A DNA stretch of 56,021 bases, the filler included, from Sphacelaria rigidula (lineage: Eukaryota): the NCBI GenBank assembly GCA_964200075.2. It is 2 parts of 2 records of this genome, joined end to end, with 100 filler letters (N's around TTAATTAATTAA, not from the genome) between each part and the next. Parts side by side here need not be neighbours in the genome. Positions count along the whole stretch, not along the records: positions 28,074 to 56,021 come from CAXNAA020000108.1; 1 more part is not named here. One strand, given 5' to 3'. Made by a program: the position numbers and the translations under genes. Every line of letters starts with the position of its first letter. Within the stretch, counting starts at the first letter, position 1. Below, one piece after another: positions 6,142 to 55,251 of the stretch. The notes under the pieces are model-generated. The model saw only the letters and a program-made list of their open reading frames with translations. It ran no database searches and had not been told where the DNA came from.

Positions 6142-6201
6142 AACAGGAACATAAAGCAGGATCATGTATCTAACAGGAACATAAAGCAGCATCATATATC
6201 T
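6142..6201. repeat. 30-bp tandem duplication abutting the TIPIN stop codon
   Basis: AACAGGAACATAAAGCAG(G/C)ATCAT(G/A)TATCT occurs twice. Confidence 0.9.
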
Positions 6202-10863: not shown

Positions 10864-11502
10864 ACCGTGCGTACCCTATCCTACGTACTTTGGAACAATT
10901 AGCCTTAGGCGCCCAAATACTGAACTCCTCAACCGTGATGCCGAGCTTCTTGACAAGTTCGCCGGTTGGTGGTCCCGAGGGAATCGGGCGAGACGGTTCT
11001 TATTTCGCAGGGGTAGGCGGTGTTGGTGTAACGTGGTAGTCATACTATTGTAGACATGAAATCAAGATATATCGCTGAAATATCATTCGATTTAACTTAC
11101 AAGGAGCATGGCCAACTCGTCGCGCCATAGTGAGAACTGACGAAAAATTGTCCATGTTTACGTCATTTGCCCGGCGCCTGGTAACGGTGTGCTGGTCAAG
11201 CCGTGCTCTTCTGTGTGTCAGGATGCCACCTCATGCGTGAATTACAGTAGGGCGCTGCCAAGAGGCTGTATGGAAGTACAGTATGACGTGGGCTGACGAT
11301 CGGTGCAGTGTGGTAAACTGCAGTAGTACTGCCTATGGCTGACTGCGCTAGTTGCGGCGAAGCGACTTGTGGCTGACGAGTGCTGCTTCGCTTGACAAGG
11401 CCGGATGGTTTGAGACGCACACAATGCAGGCAATTTCTCGAGGCGGAGCATATAACAACACCATGACAAATCACACCCATCGCAAACAAAACAGCTGTAC
11501 AG

Positions 11503-27973: not shown

Positions 27974-28073
27974 NNNNNNNNNNNNNNNNNNNNNNNNNNN
28001 NNNNNNNNNNNNNNNNNTTAATTAATTAANNNNNNNNNNNNNNNNNNNNNNNNNNNNNNNNNNNNNNNNNNNN
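27974..28073. other. Artificial scaffold linker: 44 N + TTAATTAATTAA + 44 N
   Basis: Exactly 100 nt and symmetric. The core gives stop codons in all six frames, as contig-joining spacers do. Confidence 0.95.
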
Positions 28074-30135: not shown

Positions 30136-33100
30136 CTATATTTCTCCCGGCGGTATCCACGAGCTTTGTCGAACGGCAAGCGGTCGGGATTTCGGCCGTC
30201 CTACAGGAGCAACCCGTCCGCACGCTAGACACGAGTTCTGCCCGTTACTGTTCTCAAACGTGCACTGGCAGGTCCAGCTCTTTCCGGCCTCGAGCATAGC
30301 GCTCCTTTTCCCACTTGACGACCGCCAATCCGGGAGCGAATCCTGCCGCGCGATACTCAAACGTTGACTTTGACTCTGGCCGGACATGAATCGCGGACCG
30401 CCTACGGTCGACCCCATGCCCTCCGATCCCACATTTCTAGACGACGTCCACTTTTTCTCAACAGCCCTCAGCAGCGCTTCTTCGAACGTGGTATCGTCCT
30501 TCGATCTCTCGCTCTTACCGTTTGAGCTCGGGGTCACGAGAGCTTTTGCCGCGTTGGCACCGCTACTGCCAGGGACTTGGAGCGGCGACGTCGTTGCCCC
30601 ATCCCACAGAGACCCCGCCCTCTCGAACTGACGCCCAGCTGGTGGTGCCCCTGCAGCGACGATGTTGAGCGGGCTGACAGCAGGTGGGAGGTTCGCGCCG
30701 TTTTGTACAGGTTGCGAACCTAATTCCGTCGGCTCGGACCACAAAACGTCACCTGACGTCGCTCGGCTGCGGCTGCCGTTGTTCGCGGGCGGCCGATCTG
30801 GTCGAGACAGAGTTTCTGGCAGAGCGAGTTCACCTGCCCGCCGGTGATGAAGAGTGTCATTCCCGTTGGCCGTACTGCGGCCGTACTCTCCGGTTTCGTT
30901 GCTGGTGATCGAGGTTTGACGGCTGCGGAGCAAGCCCGCGTTTCCGGGCATCATTTCCACCCCGAATTCCTCCGATGAGCTCGAGTACACTGCTGCTGCT
31001 GCTGCTGCTGACTTCGTCCTGTGGTGAGACTTGGGGCCAGCAGTACCCATGTGGCCGACATCGGGCAATATCCACTTCGGGGCGGTGGTGTCATCTTTGT
31101 TGTTCTTGCTGTCGTAGACGTGAGCGTGACCGGCGGCTGCGCCAGTAATGTCGCCATTGACAGTTTGTGCTGTCTCATCATCCCCAACCCCGCCTCCATA
31201 CACCGCTTCCTGAGCATGACCCGCGGCTGCGCCATTAGTATCGTCCTTCACAGTTTGCGGCGTCTCGTTGTCCCCGCCCCCGCCTCGATACACCCCGTCG
31301 CTTGGGTCCATGCCCTCGTCGTCCTTTCGCCTTTTTGCACCTTCCTTCCCGTAAATGATGAAGCACAAACGGGCGACGCATATAGCACCCACAAAAGAGC
31401 CCAGCTGTATCGATGGCCGTGAGGGAAATGCGTAAAAAAACATGGACGAACATACACACACACACACACACAGGTGTTGCACAAACATACGGTCGTGGAG
31501 AGAGATTGGGTTGGCCCAACGAGAGAGTAAACAGAAGGCACACGTCTCATCCCCGGGTTCCGGTGCGAACGCCTTGCTTGTCATTGTGCACGCCTACAGT
31601 AAACAAACATGTTACATATTTCCCCTGCATTTAGCTCACGAGCTGAGCCGCCATTGGCCCGAATACCATACCCGGGGAATTCCTCAAGACCGGTACTTTA
31701 GCGCAAAGCTATCCACTACGCTGAAGCTCAGGAAGGCGGTCACGTGGTCCAACGATATCAACGTGTCGATCCTACAGGAAACTATCAAACCGTCACGATG
31801 TATCAACCACAATTGGCAATCCAACTTTTCGTCAGAAGCCTTCGACTCCCATCGCGCTCTGACACAAAGTCCACTGCATATTCATCTCCTTACCGCACCG
31901 GTCCGGTCCGGAACACAACGCGCCGATCATCATGATATACAACCCTCGCCCCGAACTCACCGAGATGTATATCCACGTGAAGAAACTTTCACCATCCTCT
32001 GGCATGACAGGAGCCGCGGTGGGCACGGGCGTTGGCGCCATAGTAGGCGCCGGCGTCGGCACAGGGATGTACACCCTCAAATAATTGAAGTTAAACATCG
32101 CCGAATCCACACAAAACAAAATGCGGTGCGTACCGGCGGGAATCCATACTTCCTCAGCCCCTGTTAGCGTGAACGCCTCCCATGATCCCGTGTAACCGAA
32201 CGAGGCGGGTCCACCCAGCAGGTCGACGCCGCTTGCGCCCATCCCGTCAGTGCCATTAGCCGTGACGGTGGTGCAGTTCGTCGCGTTTGCGAGGATACGG
32301 AAAGTGTTAACGCTGTTCTCCACACCGGATGCTACTGATGCCATCACGTCCCAGTAACCTGCCTCCTCTGCGTACGACGTGTACGCCAACCACTCACCCT
32401 GTTTGTTTTGTTTATTTTCGTCAGTGATTTTTCGTGAGGCGGGGGAGAGCAAGGATACCTTGCACAGCTGTGAGAAGTAACAAAATGGGTGCTCACATGC
32501 AGCAGCGAAACATGCGTCGTGCATTAAGCGACTGTCAGGGAGTCAAGACGCCGCGCTTCCCGCTGCCTAGACATGAAGAACCTAGCACGCCGGCACCAGC
32601 TACAAGGCGAGAGCACAAGCACCTCTCTTACCACCTAGAGCTGCACTACGGACAACGGAAAGGACGACGCCACGCCATGCCATGCGAAGCATCGCAGGGC
32701 ATCGGACAAAAATATTGATCTTTTCGTTTTATTCCTCGCGACGCCGAGAGTCTTCCCCGTAACCCTGTGCTAAAAATTTGAAAACGCTGCCAAGCGACGC
32801 CTCAAGCGCAAACTGATGCAGTAGTCGAAACCAGCCATCATGTCCACCATGACATCGCCCATCGTCTTACTGTTATCATGCTCGCGCCGTGAAAACAGCA
32901 TGTCAACCCGAGATGGAGATGGGCCTACAAAAGTTCAGCAAGAGTAGAAACGCTCAAACAACCAGGGTACCTGCACCCGACCCATACCCTTCGGCATGAT
33001 CTGTCGGCACCCGACTCACCGCGCTAACATGGCCAATGTACTGTCCGTGGTCCGCCCTCGACTCGGCCTCGATGACGCCCACACCGTCTGCCGGTCTGAT

Positions 33101-36100
33101 ATCCGAATCTCCCGATCTCTCCTCCGGTTCAATCTCGTGGAAACCCACCTAACGTTGCAATATCGACAAAGTTCAAAACACAGGAAATACGCTATTTGGT
33201 CATTTTCCGCACTTTCTCTTCTCAATTTTCTCTCCACCATCGTCTATCCATTCTCCGTCGTCCCTCTTATTTTCTGAGTTGTATTTGTGTTTTGCGTCTC
33301 GCCTGCACAAAGCTGGAGGCTGAAAGTGGGTACCTGATAGCGCGGTCTCCAGAGAGCCGAGTGACAACCTGCTTCCACGACCTCGCCTGTCGTACAGCCT
33401 CTATAATTAAAGCCCTCAGAGCGGCCCACCAGGGTTGTTCTCAGGATCGGTTCTTACTGCCTAGCGGATTTTCTTCTCAATCTCTCTCAAGTTTTTCATT
33501 TCGTTTCTCATCGGTTTTGCCAGGTTTCTCCCAGCGACTGTTACCGTTCACTCACCCTTACTGACCCCTGAGTTCGTTTGTCTTGCCACCATGGCTGCAT
33601 TCGAAATGGATAGGGTAATGCCCGACAATTTACCGATAAACCGATGAATAAATCAATCAATTGAGTTAGAGCATTTTGTCTATTGCTATTTTTTGGTCGC
33701 CAACAACCAATCAACATCACTTCTTGTCACCCCCCCCCCCCCCCCCTTATAAATATCCTTTTTTTTTTTATTTATTTACTCTAAATTCATATTANNNNNN
33801 NNNNGCCAGGTGGTTTTCATCTCGCTCTCGCGGCATGTAGAAACTTCCATCCTTTCGCCCCCCCCCCCCCCCCCCTCGTATTTCGTGAACTTTTTTTTGT
33901 ACACATTGTCATGTCACCGATGCCAGCAAACAGCCACAAAAAATGTCTGCTTCGATGACTCAAGCCGCTTGAGAGCTTACTTCGATACACAGACCCGTCA
34001 CACAAGGGTGCTCCAGCGGGCACAGACTTCTACTGAATGCTCCGCAGCATCAATGCCTGATCAGTGCGGCCAGTGCGGCAAGCATTCGCCTCCACCGAGA
34101 CGTGACTCACCCGTCGACGCGTGCCTTCATATCTCACACGAGCGGCGAGCACTATCGAAATACATCTACAGACGGTACGGTACTACACATATCATGGACG
34201 AACAACTAACTGCAGGATGAGGATATTGAAGGTGATCTCACGTGCCCAACCCACGCAAGTCGAGTGAAGCGCAAGTCTCCCCTCTTGGGGCGACCCGCCC
34301 GCCGCACGAGCAGACTTTCAACCAGAGTAACTGTATCATAACGCCATTGCACGGGTGAAAAGCGTATGCGTGCCTTTCACCACAGCGCGACGAACGTAGT
34401 GTTCGCACAATCAGACTTCACACACAACACCGTCTGTATCACGGTGTCTTACAACAGAAATGGTGCCTTATCGCCGACATGCCCAGACAAACACACGGGA
34501 CACGGTGCTTCCACTCACCCCCTCGCCCCCGTAGTCATAGAATTCCGCCTCAATGTATCCGGGTAACGCCCACGGCTCTCCGAACATGTAGGGTCTCGAT
34601 GTTCCACGGGAGCATTCTAGCTCAGGTGTCGCAATGGAGCCAGCTGAATCGCTGGAGCCGTTGTTCTGGAATACCGGTGACATGACGTGAGGCGATTGGC
34701 ATAAGGATAACAAGCGACCAACATGAACATGAAGACTAAACCAGTGCTGAGTGTAAGGCTGTACAAAATCAAGTGCACACAGAAGGAACGAGCGACGGTT
34801 GGCTCGTCATTTGCCAATGTTTACACAATAGTGTCAATTTTTCGGAACATGAAACAAAGCATGGCCCCACGAAATATAACGATACGGGTATGCCGCAACT
34901 AGATTCAGACACTGCTTCAATTTGCTAGGTAAGTCGCATCCGGCGATGATGTTCAGGCTAGAAAGAGGGCGTTGTAAGCAACAGGGGGCCGGGTGGAGAG
35001 TAGCAATAACAAAGTAGTCTGCGGCGCAGTCAGTCACTGCAAGATATGATGGACCAACAAAGCACGGCAAACAGCGAAAAAGGCACAGTCGAACAAGGAA
35101 AGGGTGCAGTAGACGGACAGCACCCAACTTCCAACAAGGTGCGTTCCCTCTTCTGAGCAGCCACAAAAACGATGCCGGCAGGAGAGCACCTTTGGTAGCA
35201 TACATAGCATGCCCTCATCACCCGTCTCCGCCTCTCCTCGCTGGCTAGCTTCATGTGATAAAACACTACTGTACCTGAATCACTGACATCACCCACTTTG
35301 TGCACCATACATTTCGCACCTCCACTATACCGTGCATTCGCACAGACGAAAGTCCCTAGTGATGTCTTCATGAGATCAGATTTTCTTCACGAGGGCGACG
35401 CTGTCATGGTCACCCCCAAACCTGTACTCATGACTTTCTGTGGCGATGTCATCTTGCCGAAACAAGTTTTGTGATTAATCTAGGACTTTACGCCGCTCGT
35501 TAGGGCAGCAAGAATGAGAATCTGGAAAAGTGCTTCCTTGGAGCTTTTACGTCGTCTTACGCCCTAAAAGAGAGCTAAGCGGATGTTGACACCTTGGAAT
35601 GCCTTGCTGTACTCGTTGAGACGGATTCAGCACACCTTTTCGTTTTTTCCGGTGACAGCAATTTTTTCCTGCCCAAACTTGCATTTTTCTCGGAGATCGA
35701 TCAAGTCCAGATAAATCTCGGAAATTGTTCTGCACTCGACCATCTCCGAGAAAATGAGCGGTCTCCGAGAAAACTACAAGGTTGGCCAAAACAAAAGACA
35801 GCGACCACCCGAATAACGCACAGGTGTGCTGGAACCGTCTCAACGAGTACAGCAAAGCATTCCAAATTGTCAAAATCCACCAAGCTCTCTTGTAGGGCGT
35901 ACAACGACGTAAAAGCTCCAAGAAGGCACTTTTCCAATTTTTCATTTCGTCTGCTACGAGGACCCGCCTGAGACCAGAAAAGGTATCTCTTCACGTTTTT
36001 GCCTGTAACGGGTACTATTTCGGGCAAGATGTGCATAATTAGAAAAAGATTCAGAAACACCATTTCTATCGGAATTTATCAGGCATGCGCTGCACCTGTA

Positions 36101-39100
36101 CCCTGTACAAAAACGGGGGGGAGACGTATTCTCGCCTCGTACGACCCAGGCGCAAATCGCAGCTTCTCCTCAAATCCGCTCTCCACCCTCGCCGAAAGAA
36201 AATTCTAGAGGTTGACCAGACCTGGACTTCCTTTATTATCAATGCCTCTTCTAGACGCCCCCCCCTGCCTTTTCTAGTGGGGTGTGCACTCACCGAGGAC
36301 CTAATGTACCTCATGCAGTCGATGCGTGCTCCTAACCGGACCGCCAGCCATAGCAATCATGACACCCAAAGAATCGATTGCTTGCCGATCAATTCGCCGT
36401 TCACTAAACACAACGATCAAACTCGGCGAGATATTCGGGTATATCGCAGCACTATAATAGTGGGAGAGAGCGTGCACCAATTGCAATACATGGGACCAAC
36501 CAAAAAAAGGTGAAACACCGGAAATGTACTCCAATGAAACGAACATGCTACGTACGCTCTCCATTCCTCTCTCGACAGGGCGTTGATGGTGAGCGAGAGT
36601 GGGTGGCCAGGTGATGATGCGTTTTTGTGCGGGTTAACTAAGCTTGGTTCTCGCGACAACACGAACAGGTCAATGAACCGAGAACCAAAATCAGGAACGT
36701 ATCATACCTGTACCCGCCTCAAACGCGGAGAAGTTGTGCATCTATTTTACTGTTCGGAATCGCCGCTCGGATTACGGCGTGCGGGAAATCTCTGTTTCAA
36801 GTGTTCGGAGTGTTCGGAGTGCAGTAAAACCTACGTCGAAAGCCCGGGTGCACGCAGCTGTTTGGGGGCAGGGCCTTGGATTTTTCTTTCCAAAACAAAA
36901 CGCCCGGTTTGGTCGTCGTGTTTGGCGAACGGCATAAAATAAGCCGGTGAACAATCAATTACGTCGAGTGCCACGGTTGCTGTTACTGGTGCTTCGGTTA
37001 CGGGGGCGCGCGGTCTGCGTAAGGGACAGTAGGTCCTCGGTTGGTCCATACCCGACTAGAAAAGGTCGGGTGGACCGTCTAGAAAAGGTATTGAGAAGAA
37101 GAAACGCCACTCCGGCATACCTCTGGAATTTCCTTCTAGCGATGGTACGGGGTGGATTTGAGGAGAAGCTCTGTTTAGCGCAAAAGCCGTACGAGGCGAG
37201 AGTGCACCCCTTTCGTTTTCAAGGTACAAGTGCAGGACATATCCCCAGTTGATGCGCGTTAATGATTCGGACGGAAGCGGTGTGTGTGGCGTGTTTTCCC
37301 AACTATGCCAATTTCGTCCCAAACAATACCTCTTCAGACGAAGATCGTGAAGGAATACCTTTTTAAGTCTAAAACCCATTTTTCATTTACCAGCGGTGTG
37401 ACGTCTTCCCTGGTGGAATGAAGGTAATAATAACACTGCACCAGGACTGCACCACTGCAGCACGTACAAAACCCACAAGTGCACCACACGCGACGGCGGA
37501 ATATCCAGCGTAGACAGCTACGATTTTCATACCTTCCAGATCCCTGTAAAAGTTCAACGCTTGGACCTTCAGGGTGGATCACCCGTAATCTGGGTCTTAC
37601 ACCCATTTTTCAAGTGAAGAACATGCCCATTCAATAAACGGCGCACCCTGGCGGTCGAAGGGTTAACGTGGTTAACGATATCCTGGCACTTTTTTTCTCG
37701 CCTATGCGAGGTGCAAGGGGAAAACGCAATGTATACGGGGCATTGTACTATACCCGTTTGCCGATGCCCCCAAGTATACTGCACAATACCCTTCAATACG
37801 GGCCGGTCACTGAAAGTGAGTACCACGTGAAGACTAAGCTGCCTAGATGCACTTCATCTATTCAACCCACACAAGAATCAAACGCCGTTGTTCGTGTACG
37901 ATGGGAAAGTAGGTTGTATGGGCCACCCACCGCCAAACACGTCAAAACACATGAAGCACTTCAACCCTGTGCACGTGCACGCACAGTAAGACGCACCACC
38001 TCGTCAGGAGCACGTTACACCTACACGCACAAAAGAGCTCGAACAAACACTGCACGAACACCCACAGCACAAGTACATCATGCCTAGCGCTAGCTCTTTT
38101 TTATCCACAGACACTGTTGTTCGACGGTGATCCGTTTGGTATTGTAACGGGCGGCTGTGTGTATTCCACAAAACTTGCTCACGATGGAGTCATTGACCGG
38201 CCGTGCGTGCGTTAGACGGCCCCCGCCCGACAGAAATCACCGTTTTCTCAATAAAAAATTTACCGCTTTGCCCACGCGAAGAGCGTCATACCCCAGTTCA
38301 TCAACAGCTATGGCTCGAGCTATGCGTTGTCTATGGTGAGGCAGTTGGATCAGAACTCCATGTGCGTTTGTACTTCAGGTCTGGGCTGTGTAGAAGACCG
38401 GCCTTTTACATAAAATTCTATTGCGGTGCTCTTTCATATTTCCCTTCATGGCGAACAGCGAACAGCCCAAAAACGTCTTCGCGAATAGCTCAAAAATTAC
38501 AAAATGACTCACGGGAAAAAAGCCCCGCCGCTTTAAAACAGCACGCTGCTCTTCTTCGTACGGGAGAGTAGGGGGTAACATCGCCGCGAACAACCCACAT
38601 ACTTCTTTAGGGGTGGAAAAAAGCTCGCATTTTGTCGTCTCGAGTATACATGTAACCCTAACCCTAGAGCCTGCTGTGGGATACTTGGGTCAACTTACCA
38701 GCAATCCCAACACTCACCACGACAAAAGTAAGACGGTCCACGTGTATTCCGACCCCTCCATGCACGCAGAGCTTTAGGCTGTACTCTCCGGCTGGTATCC
38801 ACACGTCATTTACGCTAACTTCCTCCCATTGAGTGGCGTTTGTAGCGTTCAAGGTGGGCGGAATGGCCACGATCTCCGAAAGCTCTAACCCGCTTCCTGA
38901 TATAGAGCAGTTGGCGTCATCCCCTATTACGAGCTGGAGCGCAGCGGCCTCGGGAGTCCACACCTATCCATGTGTTGCACGGTTGTTTCTAGTGGTTAGT
39001 TTAATCTTTTCATCACATCTTGAGCTCTGCTTCCCTTGTCCATCTCAACGAGAGTCCTGTCGCCTTCCTCCTTGTCGTTGACATTGTTGTCGCTGCTGCT

Positions 39101-42100
39101 GTTCCAACAATTTCGACTACGAGCTGGGCTAGCCAACAGTGGGTAGTTTTCTCGCTCAGGCGACGCACGGCGTAAAATTAGGAGTTGGACGCTGAAACTT
39201 TGACAGCAGCTTATTACGATCGACATGCAGAACATCGTGACAGCAGAAAAGAAAAAGAACATATATGGTGATTTGAAATTCCAGCAAAAATAAGATAATG
39301 TCATAAGTCCAGAAAAAAAATGAGAATCTGCAAGCTGTTCCCGGGATGTATCATTTCCTTGTGTGCAGAAGGTCTTCGTGAAATTTTAGCTCACGAGCCA
39401 TCCAATTGGGCCGTGCGTGCAATGTTTTGCGTGACGCTGCTGCACCCCACATATACCCAGTGCGGGGTGATTGCTGATGTGAACCCACCGCTGTAAATAC
39501 AAAAAAGGCACTCCGACACGCTATCGCCCAACGATATCAGACGCACCCCGTACTCTACGCAGTACAATAAAGCCATCGGCACTACGACGCCAATCGAACA
39601 GCGACGCAATCCTTTGTCATCAGGTGGGTCTGCAGTTCACAGTGACATGCTTACATAGGGTCCATTCGGGAAACTGGTAAAACTGTGGTGTGGGCAACTT
39701 TTACCGGCTTTTGAGCTGGCCCAGCTCGTATGTCACCAACTCTGACTTCGTTTTCTTCAGCGCGTCGGTGCCCCAAGTCAATTTCCGACACGCGGTGGCA
39801 GTAAAGACTCTCTGAGAGACGACCCATTCGGTACAAGTCTGAAAACGTGCCTCAAAGTAGTTTGGTTTCACAAATGCTACAGTGCAGTACGAAGAATGCT
39901 GTGGTACACACGTTCAACATCGCTCGTACGCCCTGTCATCCTCAATCCTCGGAGCAACCGAACGCCCGCGTACCAACAGCATTGCAAATTACGGGGGCGC
40001 ATTCATTTGTTGCTTGCCTTAGTCGTTTGACCATCGGCCAGGCATCGCCTTCGAGACGGAGCAAATTACGGGGTGTAGGGGGGGGGGGCGTACTCATTTG
40101 TTGCTTGCCTTAGTCGGGTGTGGGGGGGGGGATATGGGGAAGACGAATAGTGTAGAATGGTAATACCATGTACCTCCAAGATGATGTCGTAGAGGGTTTC
40201 ATCTGACGCAATAGTGTATGCTGTCCAGTCAGTTTCAGTCATGTTCGCAATGAACGTTCTCCCCGCGAGGCTCTGTACCCTCCCCGAGGAATCAGCTCGA
40301 TACGCAGCTTCGTTTTCCCTATCGAGACACAAGACACAAGACACAAGACACAAGGCACACGCACACCGTACGGAAAACGCGAGCAAGAGCTTAGCACGAT
40401 TCTGGATTGTGAGTTTTAACTTCGAGCGGAAAGTACAGTCATCATCCAGTGCCAACCTCGCACTGCCGAGCATTTCGGGATTTCTACCGCGACAGCTACC
40501 CTTCAAGCTCTTGACTACAAACAACTACGCTGACATCCACACACAGAAATATATGCAAATAGTACACGACATTTAGGGTCATACGGTGTGACCACGTGTT
40601 GCGGCCGAAGGTTATCTCCGGTTCTTCTTGAGAAAGGTCGCTGTCGTAGCCCTGCTGCCCAAGTATTTTCACGGCAAGGCGTTGTCTCTCTCTCTTCATT
40701 TCCAGAGCGAGGATTGGCTATGAGCCTAGGTGGTGAGCAGTGGACGGGGCTTGCACAGACTACCGTACGGGTTCCTACGGTGGCTCTTTTCTCTCGAGCT
40801 CCTGCGGCCGTACAAGTACCCTTTACCGAGGGTACTTGAGGTTAGCGTTAGGCTTAGCATTCCGGGACCTCTCTCCCATTTAGCTGGCGGACCAATTCCC
40901 TATGACGCACTCCTCTCCACTTTACATGCTTCACGTGCTCCACGTACTCTTGATGTGTACACGGTTGTTGACTACGCCCGTGCATGCAAGTGTTTATTAT
41001 GCCCACATATCGCGTGGCCTTTACAAATGCCGAAACATACAGCAAAAAGCCAACGCACACAAATACAGATATACGGACTTCGAGAAACACACGATCAGGC
41101 GATACATGAGTAGGCAGATACGGTCCCAGTAGGGGTATGGCTGAGGTGCTGACGAGCACAGTGCTTACTTTGGATCGGAGTCTCCAAAGCCAAGTCCCAA
41201 CCCCCCCACGTCGAAGGTCTCTGCTTCGATGGTCCCAGGAAGGCATTGAGGCACCCCGAAAAAAGGCTCCGCTATTGGGTTGTCCAAGTCTATTTCGTAA
41301 ACCCTGAGGAACCGAACAGTACAGAAGAGGGGATGGAATACGGGCAGTGACCAGATGAGTCAATTGGTTCAATTGGTTGGGCACAATGGACAATATTATT
41401 CACCACACGATCAACAGTCTTGGCCCAATTTTCGAACAACGAACATATCCATCCCTCGAAAGGCTACAAATACCTCATAGCCCACTTGTAATGCGGCCAA
41501 AAATGCACTTTGGACCTTCCGCACTAGAAACGATCAGAAGCCGCAAGCTTGGTGATTGCAGCGTAGGAAACGTTTGGGCTTCATGTATCCCATTCCGACA
41601 TATATGGGACGGCGACACGGTTAGAGATGAGCTACGGGAAAGTTGCGTCCGCGTTGCACCTTAACGCGCACGGAGAGATGACTTCAACACTTGCCCATAC
41701 CAACTATCCCAGCACGTGCATCCAAACCAGCAACAGCTAGTATCAGCACATACACAGACACACACGCCTATCCGCCCATAAGGAGAGCAACCAAGCAGCC
41801 GCCACTTACTTGAACAGCACCCTGGGTGCACCACTAGACAAGAACTTCACCGGCAACATTTCTGGGAACCCAAAGTAGTTGGTGCAAAATCGCATGATTT
41901 GCACCCCGATTGAAAATTAATTTCGTTGCCAGGCAGTCAGCACACAGCTTCCCCAGTGTCGTTAGAATGCCAGAGGTTAACAACAGAACAGATTGTCACC
42001 GTTTTCCACCCCAATCTTACTGCTAGGAAACGCCTGGAAAATGTCTTGGAAATGTGTTGAACAATCGAAATGTGTTGTACGATCGACTAAAGACGAGGTC

Positions 42101-45100
42101 ATCGTACACGACCATGTGATTCACCTCACATAATCCACGAGCATGTGCGCCGGCATAGCCGTATCGTCCACGGTCGAACCAGGCAAGCTCCCCCCGACAG
42201 CCAGGTTGATGATGATCTCAAACTCGGTATCGAACGGCGCTCGGTAGGGCTCGAAGCTTGCTACTGTGCTCGACCACTTTGTGCGGGTGCAGTATATTTG
42301 GCCGTCCACATACCTGTTCCCGACATGGGAAGGCATCACGTGTTACCGCTTGAGGACGTTAGAGGGCAGCGCATGATCTGCGAAATGCAGCAACGCACGA
42401 TCTAAGGTCTACAAAGCTTCTGCATCCCTACTGACGGGTTGCAACAATACAGCAGCCACGGTATGTGAATACAAAATAAACCGAATGTACGGCTATGCAG
42501 AAAAAAAAGGCAAGCGCCAGGCGGACACAGTGATTTTTATGACAGCGAAAGGAATCCGCACCACTTCAGTATCACCAGTTGCTGAAAGGATCGACCACTG
42601 GTCCGACATGTGTCGCCTACAGTACGTCACCGTCCATTTCGTGCGGCGGCTAGGCTAGGTATGTACTGTAGTAAACACGCGAAGTGTTGTCGTTCGCAGT
42701 TAGTCTTTCAGCAGCACACACGCGATATTTGAATACTTGCTGCAAGCGACATGCTGGAAAAGGATATTTTGACGGCTACACATTGAATCACGACAGGTTG
42801 TACGGGTACACCCCCTCATCAACACGCTATTGTCAGCGTGTTCATCTTGTCACCTGCGCTTCACCGTGTCAGCACCATCAGTCGCAAATCTAAGAGTCAA
42901 AAACGGGAAGGAAGTAACGCGGACGCATGAATTTGAACATTTGACACTGAACAATCACCACCGATTTACGTCGAAGCGCGATACAAAATACATCTCACCA
43001 TCGGAGCTCTTCCGCTTCCCACTCGAGAGCGTACACATGGTAATCATTCGAGAAATTGATCCCGGATGATTGCCGGCAGCCAGCTTCCACATTGGCAGGA
43101 TATTCGCCACCGTAGTGTATAGTGCCGAAGATTTCGTCCATGTCGTTCACCGCCTGCACAACAACAGAGTCATCATCACCACATATCCACATTAGAACTG
43201 CCAGTTCAGCTGAACCTTTTTGGAACTCCTATTTCAAGCACCACAAATGCATGGCTTAACCCTACCCCTACGTGCGGGGGAGAAACAGCAGCGATGCTCC
43301 CACTGATTCTATTCCATGATACGTCTTGCTTTACTTTTTCTGTCATCGGGGCGACCCCGTAGCCTCTCTAGTCTAAGGGCATCAACTTATCTCTCCCTCG
43401 ACACGTGCCTTGCAATCTACTTTGGAGCGATGGATCATGACCATTTCTGCAATATATCATGTTTCATCGACTTTCATTAGGTTACTATCCCGCACGCAAA
43501 CAAAAAGAACGCAAACAGCACACATGATGGGGGGGAGGGGGGGGGCATGAACCCCACGACGACACTGGTTTCAAAACACTTGGATATTTTTGACGCGGGA
43601 ATAACGGCGTGCCCCTCTTTCGCACTCTCGCTACTTTCAGTGCAATAGAAAAATACGTTCCGCTCGCTTGTGAAACCAAACCATGAGTTGGCCAAGAAAC
43701 CCCAAATAATCCGGGGTATACATGACATCACGGTACAGCGCGCTCGCCTCCACAATGTCGATTTCCCCGGTGGCAGCCCAGACCGCCCTTGACGTGTTCG
43801 CCGGGAGCATCCAGAAGGCCGGCCACAGCCCCTGTCCTTGGGGTAATCGTATCCTGGCTTCGATGCGTCCCGTCAGAAACGCAATCGGACTCTTGGTCCT
43901 GATTCGCGATGACGTGTACCATCTCTCGCCCAATAATTCCTCCTCGAGCTCCGCCTGTCCAAGCAAATGCATTACCGATAAAAGATACAGCACTGGGGAT
44001 GAACACAGATGACTTCACATGAACTAGAGAATGACTCAAAAAGCCTCCTTCCTATCATCAGCTATAATAGTGCAACACAACGGACCATGATCTTTGTATG
44101 CTGTTGTTGGAACCTGAAACAATATACGGGTCTATACACAACATCCATTACGTGAAGCATATGCCAGATTTGGAAAAGTTTGGATCGCGCCTATGCACAC
44201 CAGATTGCTATTTATCCTCGACGGCACTCTCATGCCATCGTTACACACACAATCAACAATTACAGTAGCAATGACAAAACAGACAATCGTAAAAGTGGCG
44301 CTGTACTGTACTGATGGTAGATGCCGTAGCTGTGAGCTGCAGCCATCCACCATTTGACACGCACATCCCCGTTTCAGATTTACTCCTTTGCTTATTTTCG
44401 CCACGCCCTCGACGGCTCTCCCACCTCTACAGAGTCGATGTAATGGGCGACATAACCAACAGCGTGTGAATGCCTGCGGAATATATATGGCCTAGAAATA
44501 TTGTGCTCGCCGTCAAAACCGAGGTTCACCTTCACCAAGCTGGGGTTGACGTGCGGAACTCCGCGTGACTCGTAGCACGGGCAACAATTTTCCCTTGATA
44601 AATAAAATAACATGCCCGGTCTATAATAGACCGCAAGTGGCTGCTGGGTGCTGCGTGTAAGAGATACTCAAACCAGTGCCTGATAGATGTTGTGACGAAT
44701 AAATCTACGGAGATGCAACAGCCTGATGAGGAGAACACGTTTGATATTTCCGTGATTTTGATTGGCCCATTTTCCCCCGCAATATTCGATTATGTCTACA
44801 CATCACACTGACGGTTTTTAATGTTGATGTCAAATACTAAAGAGTTCTTGTGTTCATGTACCAAGGAGTTCTTGTGGTTGTGTGTTGAGGAGTCCATGTG
44901 TGTTGCCATGCTGGGAGGAGGCGCGTCCCGTTTCTCAATTCCCAATCTCACCACTTCGATCATCAAATCGCCTTTAGCTTCTGCTTGTCGTAATGAAGCT
45001 GCCACCGTCTTCCCACTCCCCATACACAAGTAATAGTACAAACCTTACACACGAGCTTTCGTCTTCCGCTAGCGGGTGTTTGATCACACAGGAGCGGGAA

Positions 45101-47620: not shown

Positions 47621-47651
<31 letters not shown>

Positions 47652-50600: not shown

Positions 50601-53600
50601 GCATATCCCTCACGAGAACTGTTTACAGCACGAGCCGAGAAAGAGCATGATACAATGATACAGCCCTTTTCGACTAGTTTACAACAGGGTGTCCTTCGGG
50701 CGCGCTCAAAGCTAGGAGAGCAGGGCACTTGCTTACATGGACACTGTTAGCATTCACTGTGCACAGTACGCTTAGCACGAAACAGTCAAAACAAAGCATG
50801 GGGTTTTGCAATTCTGCATACCCCTACATCTTCCTGTCACGTAGTATGTACAGGAACGTGACATACTGTGATAAATAAGAATCTCAAAGACTAGAGACTG
50901 ACGATTTTCAGTGCAGGCCTTTTGTACTGCGGCTGATGAAACTAAATGAACACAATTGGGCACACTTCACTCGCAGCGTGCTAATATTGAACCAGGATGA
51001 CTCGGACACGCTGTGGTGGCACTGTTTCTTATCGCCAGACTTGTGCTTGTAATTTTTTCTTTAGCCTTCCGCATGAATGGCACGAACGGTCTTCTTCGTG
51101 TCCAGCTCATTTTTTTTGAAGTCTTGAAATAAAATACTTGAAGTAATGTACTTGAAATAATGATGCGTCTGATCCGGGGAAGAAGAGAGGAGAGGGTTCC
51201 GAAAGGCTCACGAATATAACTTTTCTCGTCTAGGGTCCGACGGCCAACCGCTTCATTACTATATTTTCGTGTACAGCCTAGTTCTAGGTGAAGGCCCGAA
51301 ATTTGTTCTCCACTAGACAGAGAACGCAATGCTGACCCCGTATAAACATATCCGGTATCAGAGTGACCCCCACGAGCAAGCAAACAGTGTGACACGACCA
51401 GATTTTTTCTTGCGTCCGTTACCGTGGCACTGGTAGTGAAAATGTTTCTCGGCCAATCAGGGGCCTTCAAATTATTCTAAAAAATTTAAATGTGAATTCC
51501 CGACTTAATTTGTACTCAATATCATTACGAATCAAACCTCAGCAACTGCCATCAGGGGGGGAATCTATGGGATCGAGTGATGACCCAAAACGTGATGCTT
51601 CAGTAATTTGGGGTTTTGGCGTCCCCGGATTCCGCTGATACTATGCATCAAATGACCCAGAAAGCCTCTTGATGTTTCCCCTTATAACTGTCGTGAAAAA
51701 CGCCGACCATCCTCAACTTGGCAGTTTGGAAATTATGGGTACTAGAAATGGGAACAAATCGTGGAAGAATGTTTCAGAGCTCACCCGCTTTCTACCGGCT
51801 ACCGGGGGTCTCAGCGTGAAGACCCCCAGAGGGCCGAGACAGATTGCCTCGACGTCAAAATTCAATTTTCACTCGCGTCGAGGTAGTCCAAGGAACGTTT
51901 GTAGCAAGGCTCGTCGCGGAACTTGAAAAGCTGATCCCGAACGGTCGATGCAAGCTCAAGCGCACAAGGAAAACGTTTTTGGCATACTACAGTCAAGTCA
52001 TTGGGGGGATTCCGCGTGCGCTTGAATGCTGAAACGCACATACGGACAATTTCTCACGCCGGTTTTTTTAGGAAGACCCTGAAATTTTGCATGCGGGTGC
52101 TCTAGGATATTTGGAACTCAGCATGAATGTTTATTGCTATTTTTTCTGCCATATATCCGGGGTACCAGGAGGCGGTACAGTAAATTATGTTTGATTGTTT
52201 GTTGTTTTTTTCGCCATACATCCGGGGCTCATGTGCCGCAGCTCCTGGGACCCGGATACCTGGTAAAAATAACAAACATATATTTTTTAAAGCATTCATA
52301 CAGATTTCATCTACCGCCTCCTGGGACCCCAGATATCTGGCGAAAAAAAAGAGAAATAAAACGCTGCATTCATGCAGAGTTTCCAAATATCCAAACCCAT
52401 GAGCAGAGCATGTTAGGGTCTAACTCGAAAAACCGACGTGAGAAATCGCTGGGGATTAAACTTTGGTCTTTCACCCTCAACCACTCTGTAGCCAGGGGTT
52501 CGGAATGACCACATCGTTTTTGAGAAGAGAAGAGACCTACATCGAAAAAATCGTTGCCGCGTACATACATGCCGCGTACATACATGCCGCGTATCACGTT
52601 ACAAAACAGTTCAGTGAATGAGCTGGAGCCAGCAACATCGCCGTCCGCAGGAGACGCGTGCGCGTGTGCTTGGGCGATGTTTTGATTTTCGGGCGGTGCA
52701 GGTGTGCGTACATTTCCCCCCCACTCGTCAGCAGCCAATCATCTAGCAGGGCGAACATACGGTGTACATACACATTAGGAACGCGCAAGGAACCGCAGCG
52801 GTGAGCTTGCCCTTTCCACAAACCCCTGCTTCCATCAGCGGCTCATTGTTGCTGAGCCTGCGGCAGACGACCTATACAGTAACCCGAGTCGCCTTCTCAA
52901 CCATGTTACGGTGCAATCCTACAAAATACTATTTTAAATACTGTAGTAGTATCTGTTAAGGGCGAGGGCGGCCAACTAGTGGCCATCTACGCGTACAATC
53001 GCCCCTCTCCGCGAGTCGGCGGGATTGTCAGATTCTGACAGTCGGCCGCGGGGTTAACCCCTTTGACCGTCTGACCGTCTGACAGTCTGGCCACCAGATG
53101 CCACAGATCGGCCCTGCTGTAGATCGGCTATCGGCTCGGCGTGCAACAGACAGTACGGTGATAGATCGGCCGCTGGAAATTATACACATGAACACCTACT
53201 TCGGTTGAAACAGCTATAGTGTAGTACATAGTGTAGAATACCCAGTACCAGGTATTCAGCATGTACTATACTGTACCCAGTGTGATATGAAGCACACAAA
53301 GAACACGGAACATCTAGAGCACACTACATCGTAATTTGTTATTGTCATTCGGTGTGGTGATCGCAAGCAGAAGCGAGGTGATAAGCTAAAGATCGGGGAT
53401 ACCCGCGTCTGAGACCAGTCGGTGATGCTGTTCCGGAAGGAAGTCTGATGCTCGAGGGGCTGCTGTGATCGAGATGTGTCGGTTTGCTTTCCGGCAGCAA
53501 GGACAATTTATTGAGTAGTGTTTGTTCCCCACAAGAGTTTGGGTACGTGTACGAGTATCTTGTGACCCCGGCCAGACTCGTGGTGGATCGCTTGCCGCTG

Positions 53601-55251
53601 CTGTTCATGTGTGACAATCAATCACCCAAAAAATCAAGAGTTCACCTTCGGGAAATTTTGCAGTCTTGTGTACGAGGTGTAGTATACAGTCTATCTATTG
53701 TCGTGTAATGTAGTGTGCTTGCTGTACACTGACGACCGTGTCTCCGCGACGACGACACTTGTATAACAGTAGTAACTGTTCTATTTTGTCCTAAAATCGA
53801 TTCAAGTGGGCTAGATAATAATAAAAAGATTGGTCACCAATCGTGACGTACAACCACTCTGCACTGCCCACAGGCTTCTCTCCCGCAGTGCTTGTCACAC
53901 ACACCGCAGTAGCGGACAAAGCCTGCCTGTACCCCTCATGGCACTCACTGGAGCTCCGCTGCCTGCAGTGCTGTGTTCTCTCACAAGTTGGTGAATAGAA
54001 CAATGAACGGACATGCGGCGAAACCTCCGTACGGTACAGCGTACCAGTGCAGGACAGCAATACAGCACCGGAGTATGGTATGGCGCGGACAGTGCACCAC
54101 AGCACTGCTTTGTCTTTATTCTACGCAGGCAGCCTGCTTCTGGCGGACCGGCCCTTGCTTCGACATTACTTGCCGTCCTCACACGACAAATAATACAACA
54201 TCTATGGTCGCTCAGCACAACAGGATATTCGATATTTTCAAATGAGACAACCCAGTCGAAGAGCTGTGCTGTGACTGTACATTCAAATTGTGAGAGATGT
54301 GTTGAATATAGTTGTGATGATGTCAACATGTTAAAATACCGGGGAAATGCCTGCAGTACTCATATATAATCTGGTTCATGGATGCCCTTCCGTAATCTTC
54401 ACAAGTAGGAGCTCAATCACACGAGCTCCGTACGAGTATAACATGGGCGTGCTGTCTGTGCTATGCTGTACGGTACACAACAGTATGAACGAATGTCGCG
54501 ATTACCGTTCGGCGGGACGCACATCAAATAATTCAATTTTCCTGACATGTTTGTGCACCTTCGAGTACGGCGTAGCAAAAACAAAACAATATGCCACACA
54601 AGGATCAGAAGCTCACCGAAATGAGAAGCACTCCATCCTCCACTTGATGGTTGTCAGTTGTGTACGTCTGCTGCTCATTATTGCCCCAGCCGCATAGGTT
54701 GTCCCTGAATCGTCGGGACACAGCAAGGTTGCCTAAGGTGCGGCATGTCTTCGGGTGGCGGCCTCAGCGGAAATCCAAATTTCTAAGCGCAATTCCAAAT
54801 TTCTCAATGGAAGACACAAATACACCCCAGTACAACAACAACAGCGTCTCCTGTGAAATATCCGTATCCGTACTGTCTGTATGGTACTCTGATCCATACA
54901 ATATTTGACATTTCGAACTATTAATAGGGTGTTTGTCTTACCATTTGCGACCACATCACTCATGTGAGAGGTGTTATGCTAGAAGGTACTCTCTGTAGCC
55001 TGTGGTGTAGTGTAGTGTACTCACCCCTGATCACAGCCGTTGCCAGTATCGACTTCCCACACCGTATCATTCAGGCCGGTGCCATCGAAATTCTCTTCCC
55101 AAACCAACACAGTCGACGTGTAGGTCTGCCCGTCGACGAACGGTAAGGCGTAGAAGGCAACAACGATCGCCAGCCAGCGTACTATTGACAACGGCGGACT
55201 GCATATACCGCCATCACGTTCACCACAATGACCACCCTCCAGACCGATCAT
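30136..55251 (-). CDS. Single-pass membrane GH16 endo-beta-1,3-glucanase-like protein with two CBM6 modules and a cytoplasmic NZF/RanBP2 zinc finger; 12 exons, ~1124 aa
   Basis: Exons 55251-55025, 54704-54617, 43954-43748, 43153-42999, 42313-42125, 41303-41169, 40318-40174, 38963-38718, 34665-34519, 33148-33020, 32398-31961, 31404-30136 (3375 nt, phases consistent, one GC-AG intron). Signal-like WLAIVVAFYALPFVDG. GH16 motifs: LVWEENFDG, CGWGNNEQQTY, GRIEARIRLPQGQGLWPAFWML, GEIDIVE, YHVYALEW, IIINLAVGG, VDYVRVY. CBM6-like starts LPGTIEAETFDVGG and LPGYIEAEFYDYGGEGV, followed by DWTAYT and GEWLAYT. Stalk PTPAPTMAPTPVPT, TM FFTWIYISLGSFVGAICVARLCFIIY, C-terminal WTCQCTFENSNGQNSCLAC. The start codon is the least certain part. 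Confidence 0.88.
35500..35976. repeat. Intronic palindrome (fold-back, arms B/B')
   Basis: TGGAAAAGTGCTTCCTTGGAGCTTTTACGTCGT...TTGCTGTACTCGTTGAGACGG..CAGCACACCT (35523-35638) is mirrored at 35822-35936. Inner arms TTTTCTCGGAGA / TCTCCGAGAAAA; centre ~35730. Confidence 0.9.
35970..37370. repeat. Second intronic fold-back with ~460-bp diverged inverted arms (MITE/foldback-like)
   Basis: Left arm ~35970-36430 matches the reverse complement of ~36900-37370. Shared blocks: AAAAGGTAT..CTTCACG, CTCGCCTCGTACG, AGCTTCTCCTCAAATCC, CTTTTCTAGT, ACCGAGGACCTA, GCCGTTC.C.AAACAC.ACGA.CAAAC. Confidence 0.88.
39984..40116. repeat. Short local duplication in a GH16 intron
   Basis: GCAAATTACGGGG...TCATTTGTTGCTTGCCTTAGTCG occurs at 39984-40025 and again at 40062-40116, with an expanded G run in the second copy. 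Confidence 0.85.
44656..45397 (+). repeat. 5' LTR (3' boundary inferred from the PBS)
   Basis: Begins TGTAAG. The first ~400 bp align to 50201-50553; the rest has no partner, so the 3' LTR looks truncated. Confidence 0.65.
50201..50553 (+). repeat. 3' LTR (probably truncated)
   Basis: Follows the polypurine tract. Shares GTGACGAATA.ATCTACGGAGATG, TTGATATTTCC.TGATTTTGATTGG, TGTGTTGAGGAGT.CATGTGT and GCTGCCACCGTCT.CCCACTCCCCATACAC with the 5' LTR. Confidence 0.8.
52105..52392. repeat. ~290-bp intronic palindrome
   Basis: GGATATTTGGAACTCAGCATGAATG pairs with CATTCATGCAGAGTTTCCAAATATCC. CCAGGAGGCGGTA pairs with TACCGCCTCCTGG. The inner ATCCGGG pairs with CCCGGAT. Confidence 0.85.
52556..52593. 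repeat. 15-bp tandem repeat
   Basis: GCCGCGTACATACAT twice, followed by GCCGCGTA. Confidence 0.85.

Follow-up and report, generated by a model that had tools for sequence, protein, structure and literature searches.

A brown-algal gene predicted to encode a membrane-tethered GH16-CBM6 glucanase of bacterial type with a conserved cytosolic tail and a zinc-finger-like motif

INTRODUCTION

The closest described relatives of the gene discussed here, which occupies positions 30136 to 55251 of the minus strand in a stretch of 56,021 nucleotides (the window; parts of two records joined end to end, filler included) from the brown alga Sphacelaria rigidula (GenBank assembly GCA_964200075.2), are marine bacterial proteins that join a GH16 domain (subfamily 3-type) to a CBM6 module, such as LamC of Zobellia (PDB entry 4crq) and P0132 (Phycisphaerales), which comes from a metagenome-assembled genome. 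They share with the algal protein the motif E-I-D-I-x-E and an insertion that reads 'GNGC...CGWGNNE', and they have in common with it the transition 'DYVRVY-linker-PF.G.P..LPG.IEAE.FD.GG' that leads into CBM6. The bacterial proteins are soluble or lipoproteins of 270-590 amino acids (aa), with one CBM6 or none and without a eukaryotic signal, transmembrane (TM) segment or tail, whereas the algal gene has 11 introns, and its product carries another CBM6-like module, followed by the Pro/Thr stalk, the TM helix and a 400-aa tail with a finger.

The fungal proteins Kre6 and Skn1, and Ghs2 of S. pombe, likewise place a GH16 fold on the outer side of a membrane that they span with one TM helix, and they act in beta-glucan architecture; the profile PF03935 (SKN1/KRE6) matched the algal protein too. 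Kre6 and Skn1 are dominated by PF03935 and are type II proteins with an N-terminal cytosolic tail; the alga differs in its laminarinase-type domain, its type I layout with the TM helix C-terminal to that domain, its CBM6 modules and its C-terminal finger. Membership of the Kre6/Skn1 group was considered and rejected, since PF03935 scores 38.3 bits, below the 66.3 bits of PF00722, and the helix follows the catalytic domain. The long tail, which a preliminary description of this locus had regarded as unexpected on a glucanase, is not unprecedented, Kre6 and Skn1 being membrane GH16 proteins. Ghs2 provides another precedent, since it is reported to be a membrane GH16 and the obligate partner of the synthase Bgs3 (PMC13612389).

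A parallel in possible mode of action, that of a membrane-tethered endoglucanase acting on wall glucan at defined sites, is offered by KORRIGAN and the plasmodesmal glucanases, which belong to unrelated enzyme families with unrelated anchors and have no finger. KORRIGAN is a type II GH9 protein whose cytosolic tail controls its cycling, and the plasmodesmal beta-1,3-glucanases combine GH17 with CBM43 and a glycosylphosphatidylinositol anchor. The yeast proteins Cps1 and Phm5 are precursors of vacuolar hydrolases, type II in topology, whose short tails are ubiquitin acceptors and which follow a ubiquitin-dependent multivesicular body (MVB) sorting route; the parallel lies in the hydrolase being made as a membrane precursor, and the differences are the short tail, the type II topology and the lack of a ubiquitin-binding-type finger. 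The invertebrate GNBP/betaGRP pattern-recognition proteins are soluble, have lost their catalytic residues and bind glucan by an N-terminal CBM39-type domain. They share with the alga a GH16-like domain in a beta-1,3-glucan context, but the parallel that had been drawn with them is not supported, as the catalytic motif is kept in the alga and in every aligned orthologue. Pfam scans of the public model of the algal protein (P0041) and of its orthologues gave no N-terminal glucan-binding domain of the GNBP/betaGRP type.

Laminarin is a major marine carbon pool, and to our knowledge no endogenous brown-algal beta-1,3-glucanase has been characterised. The gene is a conserved and expressed candidate glucanase that offers an experimental handle, with orthologues in three brown-algal orders and an ectodomain that is also present in Discosporangium. 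Its architecture unites a laminarinase cassette of bacterial type with a lineage-specific cytosolic tail that carries what appears to be a variant RanBP2/NZF finger, and it raises the question of how a multicellular alga positions and regulates a glucanase able to attack its own storage or wall glucan.

GENE STRUCTURE AND TRANSCRIPT EVIDENCE

The gene is real and expressed, as a single transcript that encodes a single protein. On the minus strand, from 30.1 to 55.3 kb, there are stop-free segments that carry a hydrophobic N-terminus, GH16 strands, two CBM6-type starts ('IEAE.(F/Y)D.GG'), a Pro/Thr run and a terminal open reading frame (ORF) of 485 codons. Twelve exons, separated by 11 introns, join into a coding sequence of 3375 nucleotides (nt) that specifies 1124 aa and a stop. 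The exons were modelled by tblastn guided by orthologous proteins, together with a splice-site search, and spliced RNA contigs then settled the exon 8/9 junction. The preliminary description had arrived at twelve exons in phase and an ORF of about 1124 aa, and both its length and its coordinates proved correct. The exons are as follows:

55025..55251, minus strand: exon 1, with the ATG at 55251, a long n-region, a hydrophobic signal-like segment (aa 26-39, 55135-55176) and the start of GH16
54617..54704, minus strand: exon 2, GH16 strand CGWGNNEQQTYT (tblastn, junction search, identical in P0041)
43748..43954, minus strand: exon 3, GH16 core with the catalytic EIDIVE at 43748-43765, followed by a GC-AG intron (Pfam PF00722; RNA joint in 4/4 runs)
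42999..43153, minus strand: exon 4, GH16, 'FGTIHYGGEYP...' (tblastn; RNA joints on both sides in 4/4 runs)
42125..42313, minus strand: exon 5, C-terminal GH16 strands, '...MLVDYVR' (tblastn; RNA joints in 4/4 runs)
41169..41303, minus strand: exon 6, linker, then the first part of CBM6-like module 1, PGTIEAETFDVGG (tblastn; joined by RNA in 4/4 runs; alignable with CBM6 in bacterial GH16-CBM6 proteins)
40174..40318, minus strand: exon 7, middle of CBM6-like module 1 (tblastn; RNA joints)
38718..38963, minus strand: exon 8, end of CBM6-like module 1 (donor at 38718 fixed by the RNA joint 34665/38718 in 4/4 runs)
34519..34665, minus strand: exon 9, linker between the modules, then the first part of CBM6-like module 2, PGYIEAEFYDYGG (tblastn; RNA)
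33020..33148, minus strand: exon 10, CBM6-like module 2 (tblastn; RNA joint to exon 11, with a short side of 28 letters, in 4/4 runs)
31961..32398, minus strand: exon 11, remainder of CBM6-like module 2, followed by the Pro/Thr stalk (32006-32065) and the first five residues of the TM helix (31961-31975)
30136..31404, minus strand: exon 12, rest of the TM helix (31351-31404), KRRK, 404-aa tail and stop (30136-30138) (single ORF; RNA contig)
28093..30135, minus strand: probable 3' untranslated region (UTR) of about 2 kb, in which the exon 11-12 contig runs 1908 letters below 30001; the lower end is approximate

Ten of the 11 introns have GT-AG borders, and intron 3 has GC-AG. The ATG of exon 1 is the first in frame after a stop, the donor of this exon reads GTGAGT, tblastn matches it to the orthologues P0003 and P0004, and its residues are identical in P0041.

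The transcript evidence comes from public sequencing data. Eight runs, from two studies, contain the last exon, and their status as RNA is a guess in the records; four, which again represent two studies, were compared with positions 30001-50000, and these are taken as RNA solely because their contigs join across introns. In this interval, nine of the 11 introns are seen spliced at the predicted junctions. One contig of 1653-1795 nt joins exons 10-9-8-7-6-5-4-3 in all four runs, with skips of 1370, 4052, 1210, 850, 821, 685 and 594 nt, and it starts, again in all four, with 28 letters of exon 11, across a skip of 621 nt that corresponds to intron 10; the short side of this joint falls below the bridging rule of 31 letters. 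Each of the four runs also has a contig of about 3.75 kb in which exons 11 and 12 are joined across a skip of 556 nt and which continues for 1908 nt below 30001, pointing to a 3' UTR of about 2 kb. The exons at 43954-42125, 32398-31961 and 31404-30136, proposed earlier to belong to one transcript, are thus linked by spliced contigs in every run compared. Past exon 3, the first contig extends by 298-412 nt, depending on the run, and the 412 nt of the two longer contigs agree with what exons 2 and 1 (88 and 227 nt) would take up together with a 5' UTR of about 97 nt. Exons 1 and 2 lie outside the compared interval, and their support consists of this extension and of the identical public protein model.

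Two junctions were settled by RNA. The contigs skip 594 nt at intron 3 in 4/4 runs, sliding the joint over its 5 nt never yields a GT, and the in-frame reading is GAG/GCGAGC...CAG/GCG; GT donors (43754 or downstream) were tried and ruled out, since the contigs fit only a GC-AG intron of 594 nt. For exons 8 and 9, the junction 38699/34616, chosen by homology alone, was ruled out by the RNA joint 38718/34665.

Minor contigs run from exon 11 into intron 10 (32370-33048) at a depth of 5-10, compared with 36-47, and are probably pre-mRNA. If such a retained intron were translated, a stop would follow 21 codons past exon 10, leaving a secreted protein of GH16 plus one and a half modules. A run of N at 27974-28073 lies shortly below the position where the transcript contig appears to end on its 3' side, so the true end of the UTR is uncertain.

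PUBLIC MODELS AND ORTHOLOGUES

Several genomes already include the gene in their annotation, as an unnamed product; it is uncharacterised and its architecture is unusual. For Sphacelaria rigidula, NCBI holds P0041, an "unnamed protein product" of 1118 aa in which 1110 of the 1118 aligned residues are identical to the 1124-aa model; the two differ at two junctions only (exon 8/9 and the donor of exon 3), and RNA favours the 1124-aa model at both. At exon 3, P0041 uses a GT donor 6 nt upstream (43748-43754) and so loses V173-E174, and with them the catalytic acid/base Glu. Owing to this mis-called donor, automated surveys of carbohydrate-active enzymes may score the enzyme as inactive.

Full-length models of the fusion exist for Scytosiphon promiscuus (1149 aa), a EukProt proteome (1167 aa), Ascophyllum nodosum (1056 aa) and Sphacelaria rigidula (1118 aa), which together span three brown-algal orders; the NCBI models of Sphacelaria and Ascophyllum were tied to the tail matches by cluster look-up. 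Overall identity to the orthologues is 45-51%. A consistent lack of tail and finger among orthologues, which had been envisaged as one outcome that would speak against the proposal, is not what these models display, as the full-length ones carry it. Two models are shorter. The tail exon matches a protein of Ectocarpus fasciculatus (810 aa) without GH16, whose start, 'MDRVYD', is the end of GH16, which argues that this model is truncated, and the model of the early-branching Discosporangium (702 aa) has GH16 and both modules and ends after the stalk. Full-text literature searches, one of them on diatom vacuolar glucanases, yielded no paper on a protein that combines GH16, CBM6, a TM helix and a finger. 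The preliminary description likewise knew of no characterised example of this architecture; the gene itself had already been annotated in several brown algae.

PROTEIN LAYOUT AND PREDICTED TOPOLOGY

The 1124-aa protein is organised as follows (minus strand; aa positions):

aa 26-39: signal-like hydrophobic segment, after a 24-residue n-region
aa about 45-291: GH16, with EIDIVE at aa 169-174
aa about 300-464: CBM6-like module 1
aa about 490-666: CBM6-like module 2
aa 668-687: Pro/Thr stalk
aa 698-720: TM helix, split by intron 11 and holding a conserved Arg
aa 721-729: basic cluster GKEGAKRRK
aa 721-1124: Gly/Ser/Ala-rich tail of 404 residues

The signal segment and the TM helix are predicted from hydropathy, and the topology from hydropathy and the basic cluster (KRRK). 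The two highest 19-residue Kyte-Doolittle windows score 2.17 (aa 701) and 2.06 (aa 21), and no window elsewhere exceeds 1.12; hydrophobic peaks are confined to aa 21-39 and aa 698-720, and KRRK follows the second. N-x-S/T sequons number 15, and 11 of these lie on the N-terminal side of the TM helix. A type I, single-pass topology is therefore predicted, and the order given in the preliminary description (stalk, one TM helix, basic GKEGAKRRK and a tail of about 400 residues) agrees with it. Within the TM helix (31351-31404 and 31961-31975) there is an Arg, found as ARLCF here and as SRLG, GRL or SRM in most orthologues, which is kept in most of the homologues that cover the segment.

THE CATALYTIC DOMAIN AND ITS BACTERIAL RELATIVES

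The GH16 domain is laminarinase-type and is predicted to be catalytically competent. PF00722 (cut-off 22 bits) gives 29.5 bits on the ORF of exon 3 alone, 66.3 in the near-identical P0041 and 60-71 in the orthologues; PF03935 gives 38.3 bits in P0041, above its cut-off of 30 and below PF00722. The motif EIDIVE is intact, its last Glu being retained by the RNA-supported GC-AG junction of intron 3, and E-I-D-I-x-E is conserved in 9/9 aligned sequences (five brown-algal and four bacterial), which argues for an enzyme and not a dead lectin. Comparison with the PDB was made with the orthologue P0004, about 50% identical to the Sphacelaria protein: the 15 highest rows all belong to laminarinases or beta-1,3(4)-glucanases (E from 8.7e-48 to 1e-33), among them the solved laminarinases 4dfs, 3azx, 2vy0 and 4crq (E from 1e-48 to 1e-45). 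The nearest of these structures (E from 1e-40 to 1e-48) come from Thermotoga, Pyrococcus, Zobellia and Rhodothermus. An intact E-x-D-x-x-E of the beta-1,3-glucanase type, as the preliminary description had it, is thus upheld by the Pfam profile, the PDB matches and the alignment.

The relatives of this domain are for the most part bacterial. In a search that covered proteins of 30-613 aa, most of the 120 best matches share 46-53% identity with the GH16 part, and four rows lie at 41-45%. Twenty of these matches carry the name of an organism, which is a bacterium in 19 cases (Gammaproteobacteria, Bacteroidota, Phycisphaerales, Ferrimonas and others), and the remaining one is a Discosporangium paralogue; several of the bacterial matches share the order GH16-CBM6, and there is no other eukaryotic GH16 among the matches listed. 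Marine bacterial GH16 and GH16-CBM6 proteins share about 50% identity with the ectodomain (exons 1-8, 38718-55176), and the similarity takes in the interdomain linker. These similarities suggest that the whole GH16-CBM6 cassette may have been acquired horizontally from bacteria.

THE CBM6-LIKE MODULES

The two modules that follow GH16 had been described as CBM6-like, and this stands for the orthologues, where each module passes a Pfam threshold in at least one sequence, and less well for the Sphacelaria protein, where they fall short of them. In P0041, module 2 scores 21.6 bits against PF03422, below the cut-off of 28.9, and module 1 has no match; CBM_35_2 also stays below its threshold in the Sphacelaria protein. 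In the orthologues, CBM_6 scores over the whole protein are 34.0 bits for P0003 and 52.0 for P0045, both with the best stretch in module 1, and 32.9 bits for P0004, where there are two stretches and the best one is in module 1. For module 2, CBM_6 gives 38.8 bits in P0006 and CBM_35_2 gives 43.4 in P0045 (cut-off 23), and module 2 of P0004 matches the PDB CBM6 entries 5la2 and 2y8k (E 7.7e-6). Both modules are homologous in register to bacterial GH16-CBM6 proteins, and module 1 aligns directly with their CBM6. In the alignment, an Asn near the C-terminal strand is kept in four bacterial CBM6s and in algal module 2 ('FN.N[YF]L'), where algal module 1 has H, S, G or D; this position is presumably that of the CBM6 cleft-A binding site.

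THE CYTOSOLIC TAIL AND ITS FINGER

The tail is a lineage-specific element. An exhaustive HMMER scan of 1.84 billion representatives found 20 homologues, 17 of them at E<=1e-10. All are 210-513 aa long and most start inside the TM helix, so that they are regarded as ORF calls of the last exon and not as stand-alone proteins. The tail is 28-42% identical to those of the orthologues, and its 28 invariant columns (24 aligned sequences) lie nearly all in the last ~180 residues. Conserved Ser/Pro and R-S-x-S motifs are present, and the main conserved elements are these:

30601..30615, minus strand: tail motif GSLWD (aa 966-970), with W, S and P invariant and G/S/L/D at least 90% conserved in 24 aligned sequences
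30448..30486, minus strand: tail helix FEEALLRAVEKKW (aa 1009-1021), with invariant D/E/L/R/A columns
30220..30276, minus strand: zinc-finger-like motif WTCQCTFENSNGQNSCLAC (aa 1079-1097), W-x-C-x-C-x-F-E-N-x2-G-Q-x2-C-x2-C
aa 1114-1121: RQSSWIPP, at the C-terminus of the tail

An AlphaFold2 model of the last 200 aa has a mean predicted local distance difference test score (pLDDT) of 54, and its sole confident element is the conserved helix FEEALLRAVEKKW, within a modelled helix at residues 83-101 of the model (pLDDT 76-81); the rest is disordered.

The finger pattern occurs in 23 of 25 homologues, the two exceptions being the tail-less Discosporangium model and one marginal match. Its W, four Cys, F, E, N, G and Q are invariant, as are the flanks 'AML.A' and 'GR..P'. 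The consensus of RanBP2/NZF fingers is W-x-C-x(2-4)-C-x3-N-x6-C-x2-C, and from the second Cys onwards the algal finger has the same spacing as those of Npl4, TAB2, Trabid, HOIL-1L, Nup153 and RYBP; it differs in its first knuckle, C-x-C, which is one residue short, in the lack of a PF00641 match, in a variable Thr and in its place at the end of the tail of a membrane protein. An AlphaFold model of 64 residues was built from 21 aligned sequences. With this model, 19 of the first 20 Foldseek rows are RanBP2/NZF fingers, either those of Nup153/RanBP2 or NZF-type ones of Trabid, HOIL-1L or YAF2, with a root-mean-square deviation of 0.6-0.7 Å over 24-28 columns in the tight alignments and up to 9 Å in other rows. 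All 26 rows listed by VIA-align (27 chains with Z>=2) are fingers of the RanBP2/NZF class, and those of TAB2, Npl4, RYBP and RBM5 superpose at 1.8-2.4 Å over 29-31 residues. From this model we conclude, not as proof, that the finger is probably a variant zinc ribbon of the RanBP2/NZF type.

Several results pull the other way. PF00641 (zf-RanBP) has no match at E<=10 in the last 54 or 114 aa and none at E<=0.1 in the whole orthologues, and Pfam at E<=10 returned on the finger only a meaningless Spore_GerQ row. The tail profile, run against PDB sequences at E<=10, had no match to the finger and just two low-complexity rows. The pLDDT over the finger is low (~70), the structural matches are weak (E 0.2-1 overall and 0.2-0.75 in the first 20 Foldseek rows, Z 2.0-3.6 in VIA-align), and ESM Atlas scores for the finger are at most 0.82 and serve as a lead only. 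Contact with ubiquitin is made in NZF fingers by a triad, T-F...hydrophobic; in this family the F is invariant, the residue before it is T here and T, N, S, Q, D, K, A, E or G elsewhere, and the third is A, G, E, D, S or R. As the contact Thr is variable, the partner of the finger need not be ubiquitin. The four Cys of the finger in the preliminary description are present, and the predicted fold fits RanBP2/NZF best; Pfam does not recognise the finger, and its first knuckle is not canonical.

POSSIBLE ROLES OF THE PROTEIN

The reading that we favour, with about even confidence in it, is that the protein may be an endo-beta-1,3(-1,4)-glucanase anchored in a membrane, with a tail that governs its trafficking or turnover. 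The signal segment would lead the N-terminal part into the secretory pathway, so that the bacterial-type GH16 laminarinase and the two CBM6-like modules would face the lumen or the exterior, held off the membrane by the Pro/Thr stalk. One TM helix, with its conserved Arg, and KRRK would leave in the cytosol some 400 disordered residues bearing the conserved Ser/Pro motifs, one amphipathic helix and, near the C-terminus, the putative RanBP2/NZF-like zinc ribbon. The ectodomain would cut or trim beta-1,3-glucan, and the tail would be a handle for sorting, recycling, degradation or phospho-regulation, through the binding of ubiquitin or another cytosolic partner by the finger, without signalling from outside to inside. 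Such a sorting, turnover or regulatory handle is suggested by a tail that is conserved yet domain-poor, and the tether, the stalk and the two binding modules favour callose-like or mixed-linkage wall glucan at the cell surface over soluble laminarin in the vacuole. The analysis establishes how the gene is built and spliced, the homology of its domains and the conservation of the catalytic and tail motifs; topology, activity, substrate, location and the function of the tail are inferred from these.

Some observations count against this reading. CBM6 modules serve soluble laminarin in bacterial enzymes, and so they are no proof of a wall substrate. The n-region of the Sphacelaria rigidula signal segment is unusually long (24 aa), the orthologues having short, canonical-looking signals, and reading of the tail sequence revealed no canonical Y-x-x-hydrophobic or acidic dileucine sorting motif. 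The failure of the finger to match zf-RanBP or PDB profiles, its weak structural matches and its variable contact Thr weigh on the same side. According to one source, the usual assumption is that storage laminarin is the substrate of brown-algal GH16s, and GH16 (~6 genes per genome) and GH81 are named as the 'likely' laminarin enzymes of brown algae (PMC11468063). As general background, another source sets the GH16_2 branching candidates of stramenopiles apart from GH16_3/4 laminarinases and finds TM predictions uninformative for the families that it tested, which are GH16_2 and four others, not GH16_3/4 (PMC7965971).

An unlikely alternative, and one in keeping with a laminarinase-type GH16, is a vacuolar pro-laminarinase, a membrane precursor that would be sorted by ubiquitin and MVBs to the laminarin vacuole, where cleavage of the stalk would free a soluble GH16-CBM6 to mobilise the storage glucan. 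Its tail would be ubiquitinated, or would bind ubiquitin by the finger, along the route of yeast Cps1 and Phm5, and an NZF-like fold is of a kind that serves in sorting by ubiquitin and the endosomal sorting complexes required for transport. The membrane-adjacent Pro/Thr stalk is a plausible cleavage site, the bacterial relatives with a GH16-CBM6 cassette are laminarin scavengers by annotation, and laminarin is the presumed substrate of brown-algal GH16s in the source mentioned above (PMC11468063). However, a conserved tail of 400 aa far exceeds the needs of a ubiquitin acceptor, two binding modules are hard to justify amid abundant substrate, and the T-F ubiquitin-contact pair is not conserved. 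The interpretation put forward in the preliminary description, whose observation of the gene was confirmed, was that of a receptor-enzyme, and it is supported only in part. Beta-1,3-glucan from a pathogen, a wound or the alga's own wall would alter the tail, by clustering, phosphorylation or a partner of the finger, and thereby bring about signalling or endocytosis. The strictly conserved catalytic motif, set against the inactive GNBP/betaGRP domains, makes a dead lectin-type receptor unlikely; moreover, Pfam scans of the tail found no kinase, death, TIR or other signalling domain, and it is not obvious how one TM helix joined to a disordered tail could relay the binding of a ligand. We consider this reading rather improbable, notwithstanding the type I layout, the glycan-binding ectodomain, the long conserved tail with its Ser/Pro and R-S-x-S motifs and the interaction-type finger, and notwithstanding the callose-like beta-1,3-glucan that, in a kelp pathosystem, is reportedly deposited where the pathogen enters (PMC8307928). 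If it were true, brown algae would gain their first described surface receptor for glycans. Its active ectodomain, of bacterial origin, would bind or clip oomycete or fungal wall glucan, wound callose or leaked laminarin, and clustering would switch the tail, with its Ser/Pro phospho-sites, helix and variant finger, into a ubiquitin-dependent signalling or endocytic state; such a receptor class would combine an enzyme obtained by horizontal transfer with a tail particular to the lineage, and we give it a correspondingly small chance.

Less probable again is a remodeller coupled to a synthase, that is, a transglycosylase or branching enzyme placed beside a GT48 beta-1,3-glucan synthase, with the tail docking onto the synthase or the polarity machinery. 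Kre6/TGS proteins act in beta-1,6 branching, and the SKN1/KRE6 profile is above its cut-off in P0041 (38.3 vs 30 bits). Against this, PF00722 scores far higher (66.3 bits), both the closest solved structures and the closest database entries belong to hydrolytic laminarinases and not to Kre6-type proteins, and the predicted topology is type I, unlike the type II of Kre6 and Skn1. The pairing of a membrane-anchored GH16 with a synthase is documented by Ghs2-Bgs3 (PMC13612389), and GH16_2 TGS proteins are reported as suspected branching enzymes of stramenopiles, where separate GH16_2 candidates are thus already present (PMC7965971). Finally, the gene could be an artefact in which a secreted GH16-CBM6 gene and an unrelated tail ORF were wrongly joined, which we judge very improbable. 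Such an error might be read into a transcript that comes in two contigs, with the joint of exons 10 and 11 resting on 28 letters only, into the minor contigs that retain intron 10, and into the models of Ectocarpus fasciculatus without GH16 and of Discosporangium without the tail. But the two main contigs and the intron-10-retaining contig meet within ~30 nt (32370-32399), as expected of an assembly-graph branch (k=31), and this point is read as such and not as a transcript end; the TM helix is split across exons 11 and 12, which are joined in one contig; the fusion is found in four independent full-length models from three orders; and the 810-aa model begins at the end of GH16. The role of the protein may lie in wall remodelling, in the use of storage glucan or in sensing.

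SURROUNDING SEQUENCE

Elsewhere in the window there are matches to Swi3 (replication fork protection; 6200-7678, minus strand), to a Nup35-type RNA-recognition motif (11467-12306, plus strand) and to the N-terminus of an NAD-dependent epimerase/dehydratase (24872-25408, minus strand). These are housekeeping genes, unrelated to the glucanase, and there is no cluster logic. Five intronic ORFs have no Pfam match, so that there is no sign of a nested gene, and Rfam found no family over the window. Short runs of N in intron 9 (33795-33804) and intron 2 (47677-47686) adjoin sequence rich in G/C homopolymers.

The introns contain dispersed repeats, of which the repeat search found one direct pair of 81 nt and two inverted pairs. 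The direct pair lies in intron 2 (10.7 kb), at 44977-45057 and 50473-50553, is 80% identical over its 81 nt and has similar ORF fragments at its flanks (44535-44789 and 50178-50489). Summed contig depth reaches 17,000-22,000 at 40006-40672 and 46009-46675 and ~1,600-2,200 at 46676-47342, compared with ~40 for the gene itself. Many divergent loose ends occur at 40077-40081, and joints link 40034-40116 (intron 7) with 46464-46541 (intron 2); these deeply covered segments look like a dispersed repeat that is transcribed from many places.

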